Shown one piece after another: positions 4,117 to 11,182 of a stretch of DNA of 64,000 nt (positions within the stretch are counted from its first letter, which is position 1; each line of letters begins with the position of its first letter). Under the pieces are notes generated by a model. It saw nothing but the letters and a program-made list of their open reading frames with translations. It was not told the DNA's origin and searched no databases. The position numbers and the translations under genes are program-made. Source of the stretch: Escherichia coli (GTDB lineage Bacteria; Pseudomonadota; Gammaproteobacteria; Enterobacterales; Enterobacteriaceae); assembly GCF_013122565.1 (NCBI RefSeq), contig NZ_CP053258.1, one strand, 5' to 3'.

Positions 4117-5283
4117 TCACACTGATGGACGCAAACGAACGCGTAACCAGCTGTATCCAATTACCGCCGAAGAGATAGAACCGACCAGGATACCGAGTTT
4201 CGCCCAGTTAATCAGTTCTGGATCTACGCTACCAAAGGCCAGGCTGGCAATAAAGATAGACATAGTAAAACCGATACCGCACAGGATCCCCACCGCCATA
4301 ATTTGCTGATAAGTCGTTCCCTCAGGCAGATGCGCCAGTTTCAAACGCAGCGCCAACCAGCAGAACAGACTAATCCCCAGCGGTTTGCCAATCAGCAAGC
4401 CAGCGATGATCCCCAATGGCAGAATGGAGGTCAAGCCATCCAGCGTGACGCCTTGCAGTGAAACGCCAGCATTAGCAAATGCAAACAGTGGTAAAATCAG
4501 ATACGCCACCCACGGGTGCAACACATGCTCCAGTCGCTTCGCTGGAGAACGCCCATGCTTCTCTTTCAAAGGAATAAAGAAGCCGACAATTACCCCCGCC
4601 AGGGTTGCGTGAACCCCCGATTTCAACACTGCAGTCCACAACACTACGCCAACCAGAATATAGACGCCCGTGCGGCGTACACCACACAGATTCAATACCG
4701 CGAGTACCGCAATTGCTACAGCCGCGACGCCAAGAGAGGCCATCGATAAGTCATTAGTGTAGAACAATGCGATGATAATGATGGCCCCAAGATCGTCGAT
4801 AATAGCCAGAGCCATCAAAAAGATCTTCAGCGCTAACGGAACACGACTTCCCAATAGCGCCAGCACACCAAGTGCAAAGGCAATGTCAGTCGCCGCCGGG
4901 ATCGCCCACCCTTCGCGGGTAATCGGATCGGCATAGTTAAAGGCCAGATAGAGTAATGCCGGCACAATCATCCCACCAATAGCGGCGATAACTGGAAATG
5001 CAGCCTGGCGTAAGCTGGCTAGCGATCCTTGCATCAGTTCACGTTTAACTTCCAGACCGACTAACAGGAAAAATACCGCCATCAGCGCGTCATTTATCCA
5101 TAACAGCATGTTTTTGTTGATTTCGAGTGAACCAACCCGGAGCTGAACCGGCGTCTCCAGAAAGTCGTGATACCATCCACTGGTTGCGCCACTGTTGGCC
5201 ATAATCATCGCCAGGATAGCGGCAATGATAAGAATAATGCCTCCCGAGGCATCACTGCTAAAGAATCGATGCAGATGTTTCAC
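4117..5283 (-). CDS. nhaA: Na+/H+ antiporter
   Basis: 388 aa, polytopic membrane protein [22 protein letters not shown].., recognised as E. coli NhaA. Confidence 0.97.
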
Positions 5284-5534
5284 TTTTTATTTCTCTTTCA
5301 GGTGAATAGATCGTTTTTCCTATCTTACCCCGCACGAATCATCGTTAAAATCAGATTATAGTGTAGGAATAATTCGTTTTTTACGAACCATTGAAGGAAT
5401 TGTGCCATCAGCGATGAGATGAGTTTTTGACGGCTGTAAGCGCTAACGGGTGACCCTAAGCCCTGATAATCATAGCTTAAGGTGAGGATTTCTGAGGGAT
5501 TAATTAGGAAAAGTAATAATAAAATCGCACTGTG

Positions 5535-6779
5535 CTATAGCTGTTTATTCCAGAGATGCTTGAAAATATCTAATGTGGAGACAACATTGGCAGGCGACAT
5601 TCGGTTTAATGAGGATAGAAAGGGATGAGACTCCAGGAAGTTGATAAAACGAGTCGCGCTTGCTAACGTCGAATACCGCAATTCATTTGCTTTCTTGTTT
5701 CCTGTAAGGTTACAAACAGCCATTGAATAATCACGGGCGGAAAATGCACGCCAAACATTATTTCTCACGCCACCACTCAAAAACAACCGCGGCGGCGTAT
5801 CATAATGAGTCGTTTTCTCGCCGCGTTCTTTCACAAAGGAAATATGGCACCGGCCTTGATGAATATGCTGTAAATTAGCCATTAGACAACCGCCTAATAT
5901 AAAGCACTCGTGATCAAGGTAGTGTTGAATATTTATAGAATATGCTTCAGTCAGTACTCTAACCAGTTCAAAATGGCGATACGCCGGAAGAACCGGTTTC
6001 ACCAGCATCCCCGGATCGTTTTGATGTAATATCGCCCGACCATAATCAATATCAAATAAAGTATCACGTCGCATAGTAAGTAACTCCTTGCGTTGTACGT
6101 GATGCGCCAGTGTACCTGGAGACAAACGCTCTTCATAACTTGATGCATATTGATAATGCGACTCTACCGCTGATGGAGAATAATTTGTTGAAATAGCGAC
6201 GACTCTACCGCTTTGTTCTTCTGCGGTAACAAGGCTATAAAGATAGTTATTACTACCGTTAAACTTTACGCGAAAAGCGCGGGTAGATAGAGAAATATCA
6301 GAAGCAGAAGAGTATTGGTAACTTTCTTTATAGTTTACTTCCCGGGCTAGTTTCATCAATTCACGGTTAAGCCCTGTGCTATTAAGAAGTAATAATTTAC
6401 GGATATCAGCAAGTGAAGCGCCTTGCTCAATCATCAATGCTAAATGTGTTCTTCGCGGCGTTGTATTTACATGATCCAGAGTTATAAAAGTTCTGGAACA
6501 ATGATGACAATACATTCTCCTCTGCCCCTGAGCTGAATAGCCATACTTTTTCATAGATGTGCTTCCGCAAGCTGGACATTGTGAAACCAACCCTCGCCAT
6601 GAATGATTAACACGATTACGATAAATATTAAGAGATCGTTCAGATATCACAGGAAACAAGTACCCGCATTCCCGACATAAAATATTTTTGCCTTGTACAA
6701 TATAATCCTGACTATTCAACAACCCCAAGTTTCTACATCCTGGTGTTTTGCAACAATCAACATTTACGTTGGTAAACAT
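5535..6779 (-). CDS. Uncharacterised protein: two C4 zinc ribbons plus an HTH resembling IS1 InsA, fused to an unknown domain of about 270 aa
   Basis: The ORF track gives 426 aa from 6815. I prefer the ATG at 6779 (MFTNVNVDCC..), which has an AGGAAG SD 6 nt upstream, whereas 6815 abuts a terminator. Motifs present: CCKTPGC..CRECG and CPACGS..(19)..CHHCSRTF, then an HTH-like GASLADIRKLLLLNSTGLNRELMKL. Confidence 0.7.
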   Translation of the reverse strand: MFTNVNVDCCKTPGCRNLGLLNSQDYIVQGKNILCRECGYLFPVISERSLNIYRNRVNHSWRGLVSQCPACGSTSMKKYGYSAQGQRRMYCHHCSRTFITLDHVNTTPRRTHLALMIEQGASLADIRKLLLLNSTGLNRELMKLAREVNYKESYQYSSASDISLSTRAFRVKFNGSNNYLYSLVTAEEQSGRVVAISTNYSPSAVESHYQYASSYEERLSPGTLAHHVQRKELLTMRRDTLFDIDYGRAILHQNDPGMLVKPVLPAYRHFELVRVLTEAYSINIQHYLDHECFILGGCLMANLQHIHQGRCHISFVKERGEKTTHYDTPPRLFLSGGVRNNVWRAFSARDYSMAVCNLTGNKKANELRYSTLASATRFINFLESHPFLSSLNRMSPANVVSTLDIFKHLWNKQL

Positions 6780-6817
6780 ATCCACTTCCTGCGAATATCC
6801 GGATATTATCGTCATAT

Positions 6818-6860
6818 GTCAAAGAAAAGAACCTGATTCAATGTGTAACATTGAATCAGG
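6818..6860 (-). terminator. Rho-independent terminator after the sulfatase gene
   Basis: Perfect 12-bp stem CCTGATTCAATG (6832-6843) / CATTGAATCAGG (6849-6860) with a 5-nt loop. On the minus strand it is followed by TTCTTTTCTTTGA. Confidence 0.8.
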
Positions 6861-6908
6861 CGGGCATAGCCCTGAAAGGCATACATTACATTTATTATGG
6901 TTACCAGG

Positions 6909-8402
6909 TTAGCCCCAGGTTACCGCTTCCGGTTTATCACCTCTGGCTTTCATTAATGAATCATTATCTATATCGGTTTTATATTTTAAGAACTTACCAT
7001 ACATTTGTTTTTCAATGTCTGGTTTTTTACCTATCTGGTTAATGGTCTCAAAACGATCGGTTTTGAGGTTATATAGATACTTGGGCTTATTGTTACGATC
7101 GATGATCATTTTCCAGTCACCATCACGTATCGCCCATTCGTCGGTTGGATCATCCTGGAATGGCATGTCAATTCCGAATATTAATGGCTTTTCACGTTTT
7201 AGCGCTTTGTTCTCAAGGACAGGAACCAACGATTCGCCATCAAAAGTGCGGTCTGTCGGTAATTTGAAGTTCATCATTTTCGCCAGCGTAGGCATCCAGT
7301 CCAGCCCATAAACTGGTGTATCTGAAACCATTCCCTTTGGAAGATGTTTACCGTATTTAATAATTGCCGGAACACGGATGCCGCCTTCCCAAAGATTATC
7401 CTTGCGACCACGTAATCCATCAGTTTCCCCTGCCAAATTCAGTTCATAAACTTTGCGCGCTTCACGCGTTACTGGTCCGTTATCACTGGTAAAAATAACA
7501 ATGGTGTTATCTTCTTCACCCATCGCTTTGATTTTATCCAGCACTTTTCCAACCTGAGCATCCAGATAACTGATGTTGGCATAATATTCTCCTGGACCAC
7601 GCCAGGGTTTATCCGCCCAGTCGCCATAAAATAAATCAGGATGCTGCTTCTGATATTCGCTCATATATTGTGAGTACATGTCGAGGTATTTTTTGGGCGA
7701 AGCCAGGGGACTGTGCACTTCGGTAAAAGCGACATAAAGGAAGAAAGGCTTACTGTCCTTTTTGTTATCCAACCAGTTGACGACTTCCGAACTGACATAC
7801 TCACCACTCATTTTATCGGAACGTGGTGTGGGTTGCCCGTTACGCAACCAGCCCGTTGGATAGACCATGCCAAAACGGGGACGCTCCTTCGCATTATCCA
7901 GAGTAGCGTCGGTAACAAAACCCGCCGTATTAACCAGTGAGTAATCAAAGCCCATATCTTTTGCCTGCGGCTGATCGGTGCGATCGCCGCCTGCATTCAG
8001 ATGCAGCTTACCCATCATGGCCGTGTCGTACCCTTGCGCTTTGAGTAGATTAGCAATCGTGAGTTCATTACGCCCTAATGCCACATCTTTTCCCGTTGGG
8101 ATCCATGAGCGTATGCCGGTACGAAATGGCATCCGCCCTGTTAATAGTCCCGCCCGTGAAGGAGAACTTAAGGGGGCAGGTGCATAATAGTCAGTAAATT
8201 TGACGCCTTCCTGGGCAAGCCTGTCTATATTGGGCGTTTTAACGATCTGATGTCCATATGTTGCCAAATCACCATAGCCTAAATCATCCGCCATAATGAT
8301 GACTAAATTGGGTTGTTTAGTTTCGGCGGCTACGGCTGGATTAAAAGCATTCCCTGTCCAAACTGCAAGGCCGATCAAACTGGCCATTAATGTTTTCTGC
8401 AT
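6909..8402 (-). CDS. Periplasmic Ser-type sulfatase (497 aa)
   Basis: The start at MQKTLMASLIGLAVWTGNAFNPAVAAE (signal peptide) has an AAGGA SD 6 nt upstream. Sulfatase signatures are present: IIMADDLGYGD and the active-site box PLSSPSRAGLLTGR (Ser where Cys-type enzymes have Cys). Confidence 0.9.
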   Translation of the reverse strand: MQKTLMASLIGLAVWTGNAFNPAVAAETKQPNLVIIMADDLGYGDLATYGHQIVKTPNIDRLAQEGVKFTDYYAPAPLSSPSRAGLLTGRMPFRTGIRSWIPTGKDVALGRNELTIANLLKAQGYDTAMMGKLHLNAGGDRTDQPQAKDMGFDYSLVNTAGFVTDATLDNAKERPRFGMVYPTGWLRNGQPTPRSDKMSGEYVSSEVVNWLDNKKDSKPFFLYVAFTEVHSPLASPKKYLDMYSQYMSEYQKQHPDLFYGDWADKPWRGPGEYYANISYLDAQVGKVLDKIKAMGEEDNTIVIFTSDNGPVTREARKVYELNLAGETDGLRGRKDNLWEGGIRVPAIIKYGKHLPKGMVSDTPVYGLDWMPTLAKMMNFKLPTDRTFDGESLVPVLENKALKREKPLIFGIDMPFQDDPTDEWAIRDGDWKMIIDRNNKPKYLYNLKTDRFETINQIGKKPDIEKQMYGKFLKYKTDIDNDSLMKARGDKPEAVTWG

Positions 8403-8421
8403 AATTATTCCTTGATGAAAA

Positions 8422-9183
8422 TTAGAAATCATAACCAAGCATATAAATCATTTGATCGCCAAAACCATCGTAGCCTAACTTATTATCGAAATAACGCCAC
8501 GTCACACTGGCTTTCCAGCGAGGATAGAACTTCCAGGCAACTGTTAAACCGCCATTTAACCCATTCCGACCAAATTGTTGTTCCGCATAGGCATCATTTC
8601 TGTCCAGTTCTATTTCATTCCAGTTAGATAAAACAAATTTTTCGTCAAATAACGTAAAAGGTAATACTGCTGTCCAACCAACAACATAACCATTCCAGCC
8701 ATTTGTTTGACCATATTTGGCTGAGACGTAGTCTCCAGATTGATTATGTAATCCTATATACGGTTTAAAAAATCCCCACGAACCATTCCAGCCGAGGTAG
8801 CCCAAACCATAAAACATATCAAGATCGTCACCCCATGAGTTATCCCATTGACCATAAATCTTGCCAAAGAAAGTCATATCGGAGTCAAAGAGTCTGACAT
8901 GAGTCATAGCAGAAACGGTATGATTACGCCCCGCTACGGCATGGTTAAGCACATTGCTTTCATAAAATGAGTAAAACTCGGCTTCTTTAAAATTCACACC
9001 AAAGTCCGCAGTCACTTTCCATACTTCACCACGGTGAGTGTTAACGAAGCCACTATTCCAGTCAGCATAACCAGCATTTATTGAGCCAAAGGAACCTTTA
9101 TATTCTAATGAAGAATATGCAGGAAGATGATAGATAATCGTTGTCAGGGCACACGCAATAAGAAGCCGTCTTTTGGCAGACAT
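8422..9183 (-). CDS. Tsx-family (nucleoside-channel-like) outer-membrane beta-barrel, 253 aa
   Basis: Signal peptide present. The sequence is rich in W/Y/G/N, with alternating beta-strand patterns and a C-terminal ..MIYMLGYDF (compare Tsx ..YLVVGYNF). Its stop is 19 nt upstream of the sulfatase start. Confidence 0.75.
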   Translation of the reverse strand: MSAKRRLLIACALTTIIYHLPAYSSLEYKGSFGSINAGYADWNSGFVNTHRGEVWKVTADFGVNFKEAEFYSFYESNVLNHAVAGRNHTVSAMTHVRLFDSDMTFFGKIYGQWDNSWGDDLDMFYGLGYLGWNGSWGFFKPYIGLHNQSGDYVSAKYGQTNGWNGYVVGWTAVLPFTLFDEKFVLSNWNEIELDRNDAYAEQQFGRNGLNGGLTVAWKFYPRWKASVTWRYFDNKLGYDGFGDQMIYMLGYDF

Positions 9184-9692
9184 ATAATATGCTCTCCATT
9201 CATTGTTTTTATGTTTCCATAGAAATCAATACATCAGATAATTCATTTTGATTAAGAACGACCCAGAAAGTATATTTAAAGGTGAATGGCAAAGCGTGAT
9301 GAAGATCGCAGATTACTTTTACACCCGGGTGTGGAGGTATCGTGTTTCAAAAAGTGTGTCTATTTTAAATATCACTCATTGATTTATAGACATTTTTTCC
9401 TTATAAAAAAACACTAAATTCTGTACAAGAATATTTTGTATCTTCTATTACTTTCTCCAGTAATAACTCACCTTTCAGGTATAACTTAAATCTACTTGTT
9501 CATAATCTCAATTTTTGTAAATGAAAAGGCACATAAGAGTTAAAATAAATAATGAATTAAACATTAATTACGCAAAAATGCGAGGCGTCTTCAGGATTAG
9601 AATCGATAAAACAGAATGGGTTAAAGAGAGCGATATAATAGCGGCGGGTGCTTGAGGCTGTCTGTCTCAGGCATTAGCTGAACGGCAGATAG

Positions 9693-9747
9693 AGAAAAGC
9701 CCCGAGTGATATTTTACTATCAACCCGAGGCCTCCTATATGCAGAAC
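9693..9747 (-). ncRNA. sokC: Sok-type antisense RNA of the hokC locus
   Basis: Placed by transferring the K-12 sokC position relative to mokC/hokC, from memory. It overlaps the mokC start in antisense. The ends are not verifiable from sequence alone. Confidence 0.45.
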
Positions 9748-9948
9748 ACATGTAGAGTGCCTCTTACTGACCGTAAGGTCAAGGAGAAGAGAGCAATGAA
9801 GCAGCATAAGGCGATGATTGTCGCCCTCATCGTCATCTGTATCACCGCCGTAGTGGCGGCGCTGGTAACGAGAAAAGACCTCTGTGAGGTTCACATCCGA
9901 ACTGGCCAGACGGAGGTTGCTGTTTTCACGGCTTACGAATCCGAGTAA
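9739..9948 (+). CDS. mokC: Overlapping regulatory reading frame of hokC
   Basis: The in-frame upstream ATG gives MQNTCRVPLTDRKVKEKRA- followed by HokC, as in K-12 MokC (K-12 has MLNTC..). Confidence 0.6.
   Translation: MQNTCRVPLTDRKVKEKRAMKQHKAMIVALIVICITAVVAALVTRKDLCEVHIRTGQTEVAVFTAYESE
9796..9948 (+). CDS. hokC: Type I toxin HokC (Gef), 50 aa
   Basis: MKQHKAMIVALIVICITAVVAALVTRKDLCEVHIRTGQTEVAVFTAYESE matches HokC as I recall it. An AAGGAGAAG SD lies upstream. Confidence 0.93.
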   Translation: MKQHKAMIVALIVICITAVVAALVTRKDLCEVHIRTGQTEVAVFTAYESE

Positions 9949-10022
9949 GAGCAACGGCGGGGAGTGATCCCCGCCACTTTACAGGTGCTCGCATATCTTC
10001 AACGCACCCTATTTTTACCCAG

Positions 10023-10044
10023 GCCTGCCCACGAGCAGGCTTTT
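10023..10044 (+). terminator. Terminator hairpin at the 3' end of the hok mRNA (shared convergent region with dnaJ)
   Basis: GCCTGC (10023-10028) - 6-nt loop - GCAGGC (10035-10040), followed by TTTT on the plus strand. Confidence 0.5.
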
Positions 10045-10051
10045 GGGGAGG

Positions 10052-11182
10052 TTAGCGGGTCAGGTCGTCAAAAAACTTCTTCACACCATCAAAGAAGCTC
10101 TTTGAGCGCGGGCTGTTGTGCTCGCCGGTTGGGCCACCGAAGCTTTCTTGCAGCTCTTGCAGCAGCTGTTTCTGCTTCTCGTTCAGGCCTACCGGTGTTT
10201 CGACGACAACGCGGCACAGCAAATCACCCTGTGCGCCACCGCGGACAGACTTGACGCCTTTACCGCGCATACGGAACAGCTTACCGGTCTGGGTTTCGCC
10301 AGGCACTTTCAGTTTGACGCGACCATCAAGGGTCGGTACTTCGATTTCACCCCCCAGCGCCGCCATAGCGAAGTTGATCGGGACTTCGCAATACAGGTTG
10401 TTGCCTTCACGCTCGAAAATCGGGTGCTGTTTAACCTGAACCTGAACGTACAGATCGCCTGCTGGTGCGCCATGCTCGCCCGCTTCACCTTCGCCCGCAA
10501 GACGGATGCGGTCTCCAGTGTCCACCCCTGCCGGGATTTTAACGGACAGCGTTTTGCTGCGCTCAACACGACCATGACCATGACATTTGTTGCACGGATC
10601 TTTGATCAGCGTACCGCGGCCCTGACAGTGTGGACAGGTCTGCTGCACGGCAAAGAAACCCTGGCGCATCTGCACCTGACCAGAACCATGACAGGTCGGA
10701 CAGGTCTGCGGCTGTGTACCTGGTTTTGCACCGCTACCGTGGCAAACGTCACACTCTTCCAGAGTCGGAATGCGGATCTCTTTGGTCACGCCACGTACAG
10801 CTTCTTCGAGGGTGAGCTCCATGTTATAGCGTAAATCAGCACCGCGCGCCGCACGTTGACGACCACGTCCGCCGCCAAAAATATCGCCGAAAACGTCACC
10901 AAAAATATCGCTGAAGTCTGCGCCACCGCCAAAACCGCCGCCGCCCATGCCACCTTGCTCAAACGCAGCATGACCATACTGATCGTATGCCGCACGTTTT
11001 TGTGAGTCGGTCAGAACTTCATAAGCTTCCTTGATCTCTTTAAATTTCGCCTCGGCCTCTTTGTCACCCTGGTTACGGTCCGGGTGGTATTTCATGGCCA
11101 GGCGTTTGTAGGCCTTTTTGATTTCACGCTCTTCCGCTGTTTTGGAAACGCCTAAAATCTCGTAATAATCTTGCTTAGCCAT
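10052..11182 (-). CDS. dnaJ: Hsp40 co-chaperone
   Basis: 376 aa from [38 protein letters not shown] domain, G/F region and CxxCxGxG repeats are all present. Confidence 0.98.

Follow-up and report, generated by a model that had tools for sequence, protein, structure and literature searches.

A channel–sulfatase cassette beside nhaA in Escherichia coli: apparent loss of a maturase gene and a cysteine-to-serine change within an old gene group

A three-gene insert lies between nhaA and the sokC/hokC genes in a 64,000-nucleotide stretch of Escherichia coli DNA (contig NZ_CP053258.1, RefSeq assembly GCF_013122565.1), the whole of which we call the window. Its genes, all intact and all on the minus strand, encode a Tsx/OmpK-family outer-membrane channel (253 amino acids, 8422–9183), a periplasmic S1 sulfatase (497 amino acids, 6909–8402) and a Zn-ribbon protein (414 amino acids, 5535–6779), and the list of open reading frames (ORFs) has them at the coordinates given in an earlier reading of this DNA, the first-pass annotation. 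The explanation that we favor, with moderate confidence, is that the insert represents, in the form that it takes in Escherichia, an old cassette of channel, sulfatase, maturase and Zn-ribbon protein genes, whose sulfatase would now be matured in trans and whose Zn-ribbon protein would regulate it. The genes have already been annotated and the module has been partly described, and the cassette is an undescribed variant of the ordinary sulfatase-plus-maturase kind; its new features are a private Tsx-type channel, a fourth gene that is probably transposase-derived and, in Escherichia, an apparent loss of the maturase gene accompanied by a genus-wide change from Cys to Ser.

The evidence begins with gene order outside Escherichia. 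One genome per species was scanned, which yielded 30 loci, and these were then searched by tblastn with all cassette components. In other genera, a gene of 380–400 codons for a radical-SAM/SPASM maturase (anSME) sits between the sulfatase and Zn-protein genes. The dnaJ-nhaA slot of Klebsiella quasipneumoniae holds Channel_Tsx, Sulfatase, Radical_SAM+SPASM (390 amino acids) and Zn-protein genes, and the same four-gene order occupies that slot in Citrobacter, Pseudescherichia, Kosakonia, Phytobacter, Yokenella and an uncultured enterobacterium. Altogether the cassette occupies the slot in at least eight other genera, and the four-gene order was seen there, beyond K. quasipneumoniae and C. amalonaticus, in about 12 further species. 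Salmonella keeps the run of sulfatase, maturase (presumably STM0036) and Zn-protein genes, with the channel gene on the opposite strand beside a 5'-nucleotidase gene and two arylsulfate sulfotransferase genes around the cassette. In Scandinavium, Buttiauxella, Franconibacter, Atlantibacter and other Citrobacter the cassette is found at other chromosomal sites. A search anchored on the channel recovered it in C. amalonaticus (in the dnaJ-nhaA slot) and, at other sites, in another enterobacterial contig and in one Vibrio, where the Zn-protein homolog is convergent (29% identity, E 4.5e-52). Within Escherichia, the cassette lies in the same place, next to hok, in E. albertii, in E. whittamii and in a cryptic clade.

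Among 5,426 complete E. coli genomes, 1,271 (23%) have at least 80% of the insert, each in a single chromosomal copy, and the other 77% lack it. About 220 of these genomes are at least 95% identical to the window; a second allele class (∼89.5%) includes PMV-1 and APEC O1, and a third, large one (∼86.6%) includes ST131, F11 and ATCC 25922. Strains of the second and third classes belong, to judge by their names, to phylogroup B2. All three ORFs are intact in five of six further E. coli loci and broken in ECONIH1, so the expectation of the first-pass annotation that the genes would co-occur across genomes and be mostly undisrupted was borne out. The close coupling that it had proposed for the channel and sulfatase genes also held: the stop codon of the first and the start codon of the second are 19 nt apart in the window, the two genes are adjacent in nearly every related locus, whether searches were anchored on the Zn protein or on the channel, and the coupling is real and old.

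By tblastn, anSME was absent from every Escherichia locus and from the window. The distance between the sulfatase and Zn-protein genes in Escherichia loci is 128–153 bp, and the 129-bp spacer of the window (6780–6908, minus strand) is where other genera have the maturase gene. The first-pass annotation had noted a strong terminator here, and rightly so, as a terminator scan gave a 14-bp stem (6831–6861) followed by a T tract, and an RNAalifold analysis of 17 sequences gave 18 hairpin pairs, 11 of them with compensatory double changes across genera; what it missed is the deleted maturase gene at that site. The hairpin belongs to a conserved 3' element of the sulfatase gene (6820–6884, minus strand; no Rfam family matches), consisting of the block GTATGCCnnTnAGGGCnnTGCCC, the hairpin and the T tract, which follows the sulfatase stop codon with or without a maturase gene behind it. 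The ribosome-binding region before the Zn-protein gene is likewise common to maturase-bearing and maturase-free cassettes, and the deletion would thus have removed essentially the maturase ORF only. We conclude that Escherichia has, as judged by these comparisons, lost the cassette's own maturase gene at the terminator/spacer site. Four other lineages (K. oxytoca, K. spallanzanii, Kluyvera intermedia and Phytobacter massiliensis) also lack it, and because their spacer lengths differ, these losses were independent. In species that have the maturase gene, its start lies about 10–40 nt past the terminator in most slot-type loci, so the downstream genes are probably expressed by read-through at a lower level. 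Separately, the GTATGCCnnTnAGGGCnnTGCCC block (within 6820–6884) is highly conserved in at least eight genera and could be an attenuator, a protein-binding site or part of a small RNA derived from the 3' untranslated region. It is not a repeated motif, with eight matches found against 8.1 expected, and a weak copy at 5460–5474 is attributable to chance. A promoter-like site upstream of the Zn-protein gene (6822–6794) is not conserved in the closest Escherichia clade and is not claimed, and a 426-codon ORF starting at 6815 was rejected as the Zn-protein gene because all orthologs use the ATG at 6779.

The sulfatase, called 'sulfatase family protein' in RefSeq, matched Pfam Sulfatase (PF00884) with an E value of 1e-58 over residues 31–378. 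Its signature, S-S-P-S-R-A-G-L-L-T-G-R within the motif LSSPSR, is Ser-type, with Ser79 (codon AGT) at the formylglycine position, so the Ser-type call of the first-pass annotation was sound as far as it went; that the serine is peculiar to Escherichia had gone unseen. The maturase recognition signature S-x-P-x-R-x(4)-T-G-R is complete, the metal- and sulfate-binding motifs DD, GK(L/W)H, H(S/T)P, SDNG and GRKDN are kept, and the catalytic D, K, H and N are invariant in 31 orthologs. Read by eye, the N terminus (MQKTLMASLIGLAVWTGNAFNPAVAA) is a Sec-type signal peptide without a twin arginine. The same sulfatase has a crystal structure, PDB 3ED4 (1,110 bits over residues 6–497, about 18 substitutions, SSPSR kept), deposited as a 'putative arylsulfatase from Escherichia coli' by the New York SGX structural genomics group and unpublished, which represents a different allele from that of the window; its function, substrate and modification state are likewise unpublished.

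The motif is LSSPSR in 11 of 11 Escherichia loci (the three E. coli allele classes, E. albertii, E. whittamii and clade MOD1-EC7003) and LCSPSR, with a TGY codon, in 30 of 30 loci from elsewhere, a difference that amounts to a single-base change from TGY to AGT. Among 6 Escherichia and 25 other orthologs, residue 79 is the only column that is invariant within each group yet different between them. Serine at the catalytic position is thus a change from cysteine that is specific to Escherichia. The changed enzyme is nonetheless constrained: when the sulfatase gene is compared with the B2 allele, the ratio of nonsynonymous to synonymous substitution rates (dN/dS) is 0.029 at a dS of 0.59, and comparison with E. 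albertii gives 0.022 at a dS of 0.90. These values are comparable in magnitude to that of nhaA (0.015), and the channel gene gives 0.036 at dS 0.51 against the B2 allele (range 0.036–0.051). Because this divergence is later than the loss of the maturase gene and the switch to Ser, the low ratios indicate that the proteins function without the cassette maturase, and both channel and sulfatase appear to be still in use under strong purifying selection. Breaks are sporadic: the ECONIH1 sulfatase has an internal stop at codon 201 (L052 1689–3182; L numbers are our locus handles), an ISEc52 sits in the island of LHM10-1 (H2), and the channel gene is split in the type strain of E. albertii (L013).

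As for how such an enzyme might be matured, the cassette maturase is 48% identical to AslB of K-12 and 44% identical to YdeM. The sulfatases encoded beside these two, AslA (SSPTR; L042 4353–6008) and YdeN (SGPSR; L043 4843–6525), are both Ser-type by sequence, so that all maturase-linked sulfatases of E. coli, together with the cassette one, are Ser-type. Of the 5,426 genomes, 5,424 have aslB and 5,334 have ydeM. One Ser-type sulfatase produced in E. coli is reported to have been active even though its own maturase was not supplied, with AslB and YdeM named as candidates (PMC8379841). From this precedent, the near-universal presence of AslB and YdeM and their Ser-type partners, we infer maturation in trans.

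In the mechanism that we propose, the full cassette encodes a small Tsx/OmpK channel, a Sec-exported periplasmic sulfatase, an anSME that would form formylglycine in the cytoplasm before export, and a cytoplasmic protein with a Zn ribbon and a helix-turn-helix (HTH). Small sulfate esters would enter the periplasm by way of the channel and there be hydrolyzed to sulfate and a free alcohol or phenol. In Escherichia, after, or because of, the change from Cys to Ser, the sulfatase would be matured in trans by AslB and/or YdeM, the serine suiting it to enzymes whose existing partners are Ser-type. Behind the sulfatase gene, the conserved terminator would lower expression of the gene or genes downstream, and the Zn protein would bind DNA as InsA does and regulate the cassette, which would have descended vertically before most lineages of E. 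coli lost it by deletion. A more ambitious combination, namely that the serine was retuned in step with maturase loss (as an adaptation to AslB/YdeM, or as a formylglycine-free S1 fold) and, in addition, that a catalytically dead IS1-like transposase has been kept throughout the history of the Enterobacteriaceae and Vibrionaceae as the dedicated transcription factor of operons for periplasmic ester hydrolases (sulfatase, 5'-nucleotidase), is in our estimation unlikely to hold as a whole.

Several points weigh against the explanation that we favor. The four lineages outside Escherichia that lost the maturase gene kept Cys, so loss does not force the switch. The classical Ser-type AtsA of Klebsiella needed co-expressed AtsB in E. 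coli. The absence of the cassette from 77% of E. coli genomes and its occasional breakage imply that it is dispensable. Relative to the island-free locus of E. coli O104:H4, the insert replaces 88 bp (L003 3238–3325) that have no detectable similarity to the cassette, so simple deletion is not the whole story. The structural model of the Zn protein is of modest confidence (pLDDT 65), hhalign gave no sequence similarity between this protein and IS1 InsB, and the substrate proposed below is a guess from gene neighborhood and general knowledge of Tsx-type channels.

It is decidedly improbable, in our view, that the Escherichia enzyme is no longer a formylglycine sulfatase and that an unmodified Ser79 instead performs serine-nucleophile chemistry, for example on phosphate esters, or that the protein only binds its ligand. 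Phosphate-ester chemistry does occur elsewhere in the alkaline-phosphatase superfamily, Ser-type sulfatases are the class thought to need anSME, the Escherichia cassette is without a maturase gene, and the switch is both genus-wide and the sole fixed active-site difference. A paper that made use of 3ED4 also places it among active-site mutants in which the sulfate–metal contact is not seen. The sequence nevertheless retains the full maturase signature and every metal- and sulfate-binding motif, two Ser-type sulfatase/maturase pairs are present in the same genomes, and selection on the sulfatase is of the same order as that on nhaA, all of which argue against this alternative.

The first-pass annotation had read the insert as a horizontally acquired island, and the corresponding alternative, a recent acquisition, silenced by H-NS, that some lineages of E. 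coli would have received at the site between nhaA and hok/sok, must be weighed against an old cassette. Its base composition is indeed deviant, with a guanine plus cytosine (G+C) content of 0.42 against 0.50–0.52 in the flanks and an AT-rich leader, and its distribution in E. coli is patchy. Repeated gains and losses of modules along the E. coli tree, among them a 'putative cerebroside sulfatase' module that is one of five variable modules around nhaAR, have been inferred previously (Lescat et al. 2014, PMC4182557). Over 5535–9183, the B2 allele (L002, F11) is 96.4% identical to that of E. whittamii (L012) and 86.4% identical to that of the window, a divergence of 13.6%, at a dnaJ identity of 98.6% (1.4% divergence) between the window and F11 and an nhaA dS of 0.32, which points to recombinational import of at least one allele. 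A deep allelic split or introgression of this kind may extend the nhaAR anomaly of Lescat et al. into the sulfatase module.

The remaining marks of a recent island were not found. Sister taxa have the cassette, which fills the same slot in many genera and in every species of Escherichia sampled; neither an integrase gene nor a tRNA gene was found at the insert in the window, nor were convincing flanking repeats; and the putative promoter and terminator elements are conserved across genera. The cassette is also lower in G+C than its flanks in Klebsiella (0.49 vs 0.56), Kosakonia (0.47 vs 0.52–0.56) and Salmonella (0.48 vs 0.54–0.56), and since the four genera measured share this bias, it belongs to the cassette itself and does not date its acquisition to E. 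coli. A recent acquisition is consequently quite unlikely, and the claim of a horizontally acquired island is not supported; the comparisons instead indicate an old cassette common to the Enterobacteriaceae and Vibrio, for whose distribution in E. coli widespread loss is a better account than gain.

The channel gene and the region before it fit the same picture. The call of a Tsx-family channel in the first-pass annotation was upheld by a Pfam Channel_Tsx match (E 7e-14, 52.6 bits against a gathering cut-off of 27.2). The NCBIfam model PRK11528, which we take to be that of YdiY, scored 121.7 bits (E 4.6e-35), below its cut-off of 282 bits, PGAP/RefSeq names the protein 'outer membrane protein OmpK', and no solved structure matches it by sequence at E ≤ 1. 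Read directly, its termini are a signal-peptide-like MSAKRRLLIACALTTIIYHLPAYS and ...MLGYDF, with a C-terminal Phe. The AT-rich leader reported earlier was measured at 29.5% G+C over 9184–9640, with exactly 10 G+C in 9361–9420, and its part within the insert (9184–9533, minus strand) is a putative promoter region of the channel gene. In an alignment of 11 upstream regions, two blocks proved to be shared by several genera. One is an imperfect palindrome, TCTGCGATCTTCATCACG (9312–9295, minus strand), about 17 nt before a −10-like TAAATA (9278–9273), and the other is ATAGACACACTTTTTGAAACACGAT (9363–9339, minus strand). In Kosakonia the palindrome reads TGTGAT-ATCTCT-ATCACA. As an observation in its own right, an imperfect palindrome resembling TGTGAT-N6-ATCACA in the 9295–9363 region is positioned like a class II activator site.

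Besides 3ED4, the nearest solved relatives of the sulfatase are human steryl-sulfatase (E 4e-54), GalNAc-6-sulfatase, carrageenan sulfatases and arylsulfatase A, all of them distant, so sequence does not name the substrate. Genes for arylsulfate sulfotransferase flank the cassette in 14 loci of the first set and in L047 and L048, six of these loci lying at other chromosomal sites (L010, L033, L038, L039, L047 and L048). The barrels of Tsx-type channels are narrow, with planar aromatic rings as ligands. From the channel type and these recurrent neighbors, our best guess, held with low confidence, is that the substrates are small planar aryl or phenolic, possibly steroid, sulfate esters.

That the substrate is instead a nucleoside or nucleotide derivative, such as a sulfated nucleotide or nucleoside, we regard as very unlikely. 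The channel does belong to the nucleoside-channel family Tsx, and the same locus in Salmonella, Citrobacter, K. spallanzanii and Atlantibacter (L004 4168–6599; L016, L017, L019, L021, L036) contains a second Tsx subtype paired with a Metallophos/5'-nucleotidase gene and divergent from the sulfatase operon. Vibrio relatives of the Zn protein lie beside the same 5'-nucleotidase family, and the Vibrio cassette adjoins deoCABD-like genes. The 5'-nucleotidase, however, goes with the other channel subtype, which is only about 56% identical to the channel of the window, and not with the sulfatase-linked one; arylsulfate sulfotransferase is the commoner neighbor; and we know of no natural sulfated nucleoside nutrient. 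Aryl sulfates thus remain our preferred guess.

The Zn protein, named 'hypothetical' or 'IS1/IS1595 family N-terminal zinc-binding domain-containing protein' in RefSeq, has two CxxC ribbons, an InsA-like HTH at about residues 65–150 and some 250 further residues. NCBIfam matches (the IS1/IS1595 Zn domain NF050000 at E 2e-9, NF033558 over model positions 1–86, and IS1249 N-terminus models) and an hhalign comparison with K-12 InsA over the Zn ribbon and HTH (91.7% probability, E 7.8e-7) agree with the InsA-like ribbon recognized by the first-pass annotation, which had overlooked that the protein appears to be transposase-like over its full length and not in its ribbon only. An AlphaFold model of modest quality (pLDDT 65, pTM 0.70) has an RNase-H-like order of secondary structures. 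Pfam found no DDE domain, hhalign of the family against K-12 InsB was negative twice (E 0.3–0.4), and a DDE remnant seen in a hand alignment was dropped for the latter reason. In an alignment of 31 sequences the ribbon cysteines, R88, R238, H269 and W343 are invariant. A profile search of 1.84 billion representatives returned 492 relatives, full-length Vibrio ones included. Even so, a resident or decaying insertion sequence (IS) with no relation to the sulfatase genes, as the transposase N-terminus matches and the name 'IS1 family transposase' given by PGAP to some relatives might suggest, is hardly credible, since the gene occurs once per genome in 1,281 E. coli genomes, its full-length orthologs (36–96% identity across Enterobacteriaceae, 29% in the Vibrio cassette) are found in an unchanged place behind the sulfatase/maturase genes all the way from Escherichia to Vibrio, no terminal or flanking inverted repeats surround it, the 31-sequence alignment has no invariant or near-invariant Asp for a DDE triad, and its dN/dS (0.094 at dS 1.05 against the B2 allele; range 0.09–0.12) indicates weaker but clear purifying selection.

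More distant Vibrio relatives (∼21–23% identity) adjoin or diverge from a 5'-nucleotidase-family gene without a sulfatase (L044 6387–9386, L045 1761–4704), and the Atlantibacter gene is divergent from a channel and 5'-nucleotidase pair, again without a sulfatase, which suggests a general link between the family and periplasmic ester hydrolases. InsA itself acts as a repressor. By analogy, the Zn protein is probably a regulator, a domesticated and catalytically inactive transposase that would bind DNA at operons for periplasmic ester hydrolases.

Comparison by blastn with the O104:H4 locus placed the whole insert at 5521–9533 (4,013 bp, minus strand) in the chromosomal order dnaK-dnaJ-hokC/sokC ... 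nhaA-nhaR, and in K-12 sokC and nhaA are 478 bp apart, in keeping with the figure of under 0.5 kb given in the first-pass annotation. The sok RNA (9646–9798) is the sole Rfam match within 5200–10100. The hokC-dnaJ interval (9950–10050 in the window) is without an IS; the closest relative has IS421 there (L001 8744–9856) and K-12 has IS186 (L041 1388–2732).

A literature search, in which the CFT073 and UTI89 locus tags used were guesses, found no functional study of the cassette genes; it yielded the module description of Lescat et al., mentions of 3ED4 and one line in a table of the SsrB regulon. According to that Salmonella SsrB study, SL0037-SL0038 (STM0036) is a two-gene unit that is 4-fold down in an ssrB mutant, with a chromatin immunoprecipitation peak at the 5' intergenic region. 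Pairs of sulfatase and maturase are well known, and the interest of this cassette lies in the private channel and the apparently transposase-derived protein that have been kept with such a pair from Vibrio to Escherichia. Within E. coli it is found mainly in lineages of the ST131, F11, APEC O1 and ATCC 25922 type, which by their strain names are B2 extraintestinal pathogens. The adjoining nhaAR operon has been linked to B2 virulence (Lescat et al. 2014, PMC4182557). Given these lineages and this neighbor, the cassette could prove relevant to niche adaptation once its substrate is defined, for example as aryl or steroid sulfates of urine or bile. The Cys-to-Ser switch and maturase loss would also be a natural experiment on sulfatase maturation in E. 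coli, on the roles of AslB and YdeM and on a suspected third system, and the Zn protein, if our reading is true, would offer a clear instance of transposase domestication in bacteria.

The cassette can finally be set beside the systems that it resembles. The module of Lescat et al. is the same locus; its gene content, missing maturase, Ser/Cys difference and synteny outside Escherichia were not analyzed there. Like the pairs AtsA/AtsB of Klebsiella and AslA/AslB and YdeN/YdeM of E. coli, the cassette has a periplasmic S1 sulfatase with the C/S-x-P-x-R signature and, outside Escherichia, an adjacent maturase gene whose product is 44–48% identical to YdeM and AslB. The sulfatase itself is only 25–29% identical to YdeN and AslA, and the cassette adds to such pairs a dedicated Tsx-type channel and a presumably transposase-derived protein. 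Unlike the AtsA/AtsB type, the Escherichia cassette has no adjacent maturase gene and has exchanged Cys for Ser, whereas maturase-bearing cassettes elsewhere are Cys-type. The channel shares the Channel_Tsx family and a size of about 250 amino acids with Tsx, Vibrio OmpK and E. coli YdiY but is genetically tied to a sulfatase and not to nucleoside genes, a context that argues for a substrate other than nucleosides. With IS1 and IS1595 transposases the Zn protein has in common an N-terminal Zn ribbon and HTH; it differs from InsA, InsAB' and the IS1595 enzymes in an extra N-terminal Zn ribbon, in the absence of an InsB match, a Pfam DDE domain and a conserved Asp, and in being encoded by a single-copy, syntenic gene without inverted repeats.

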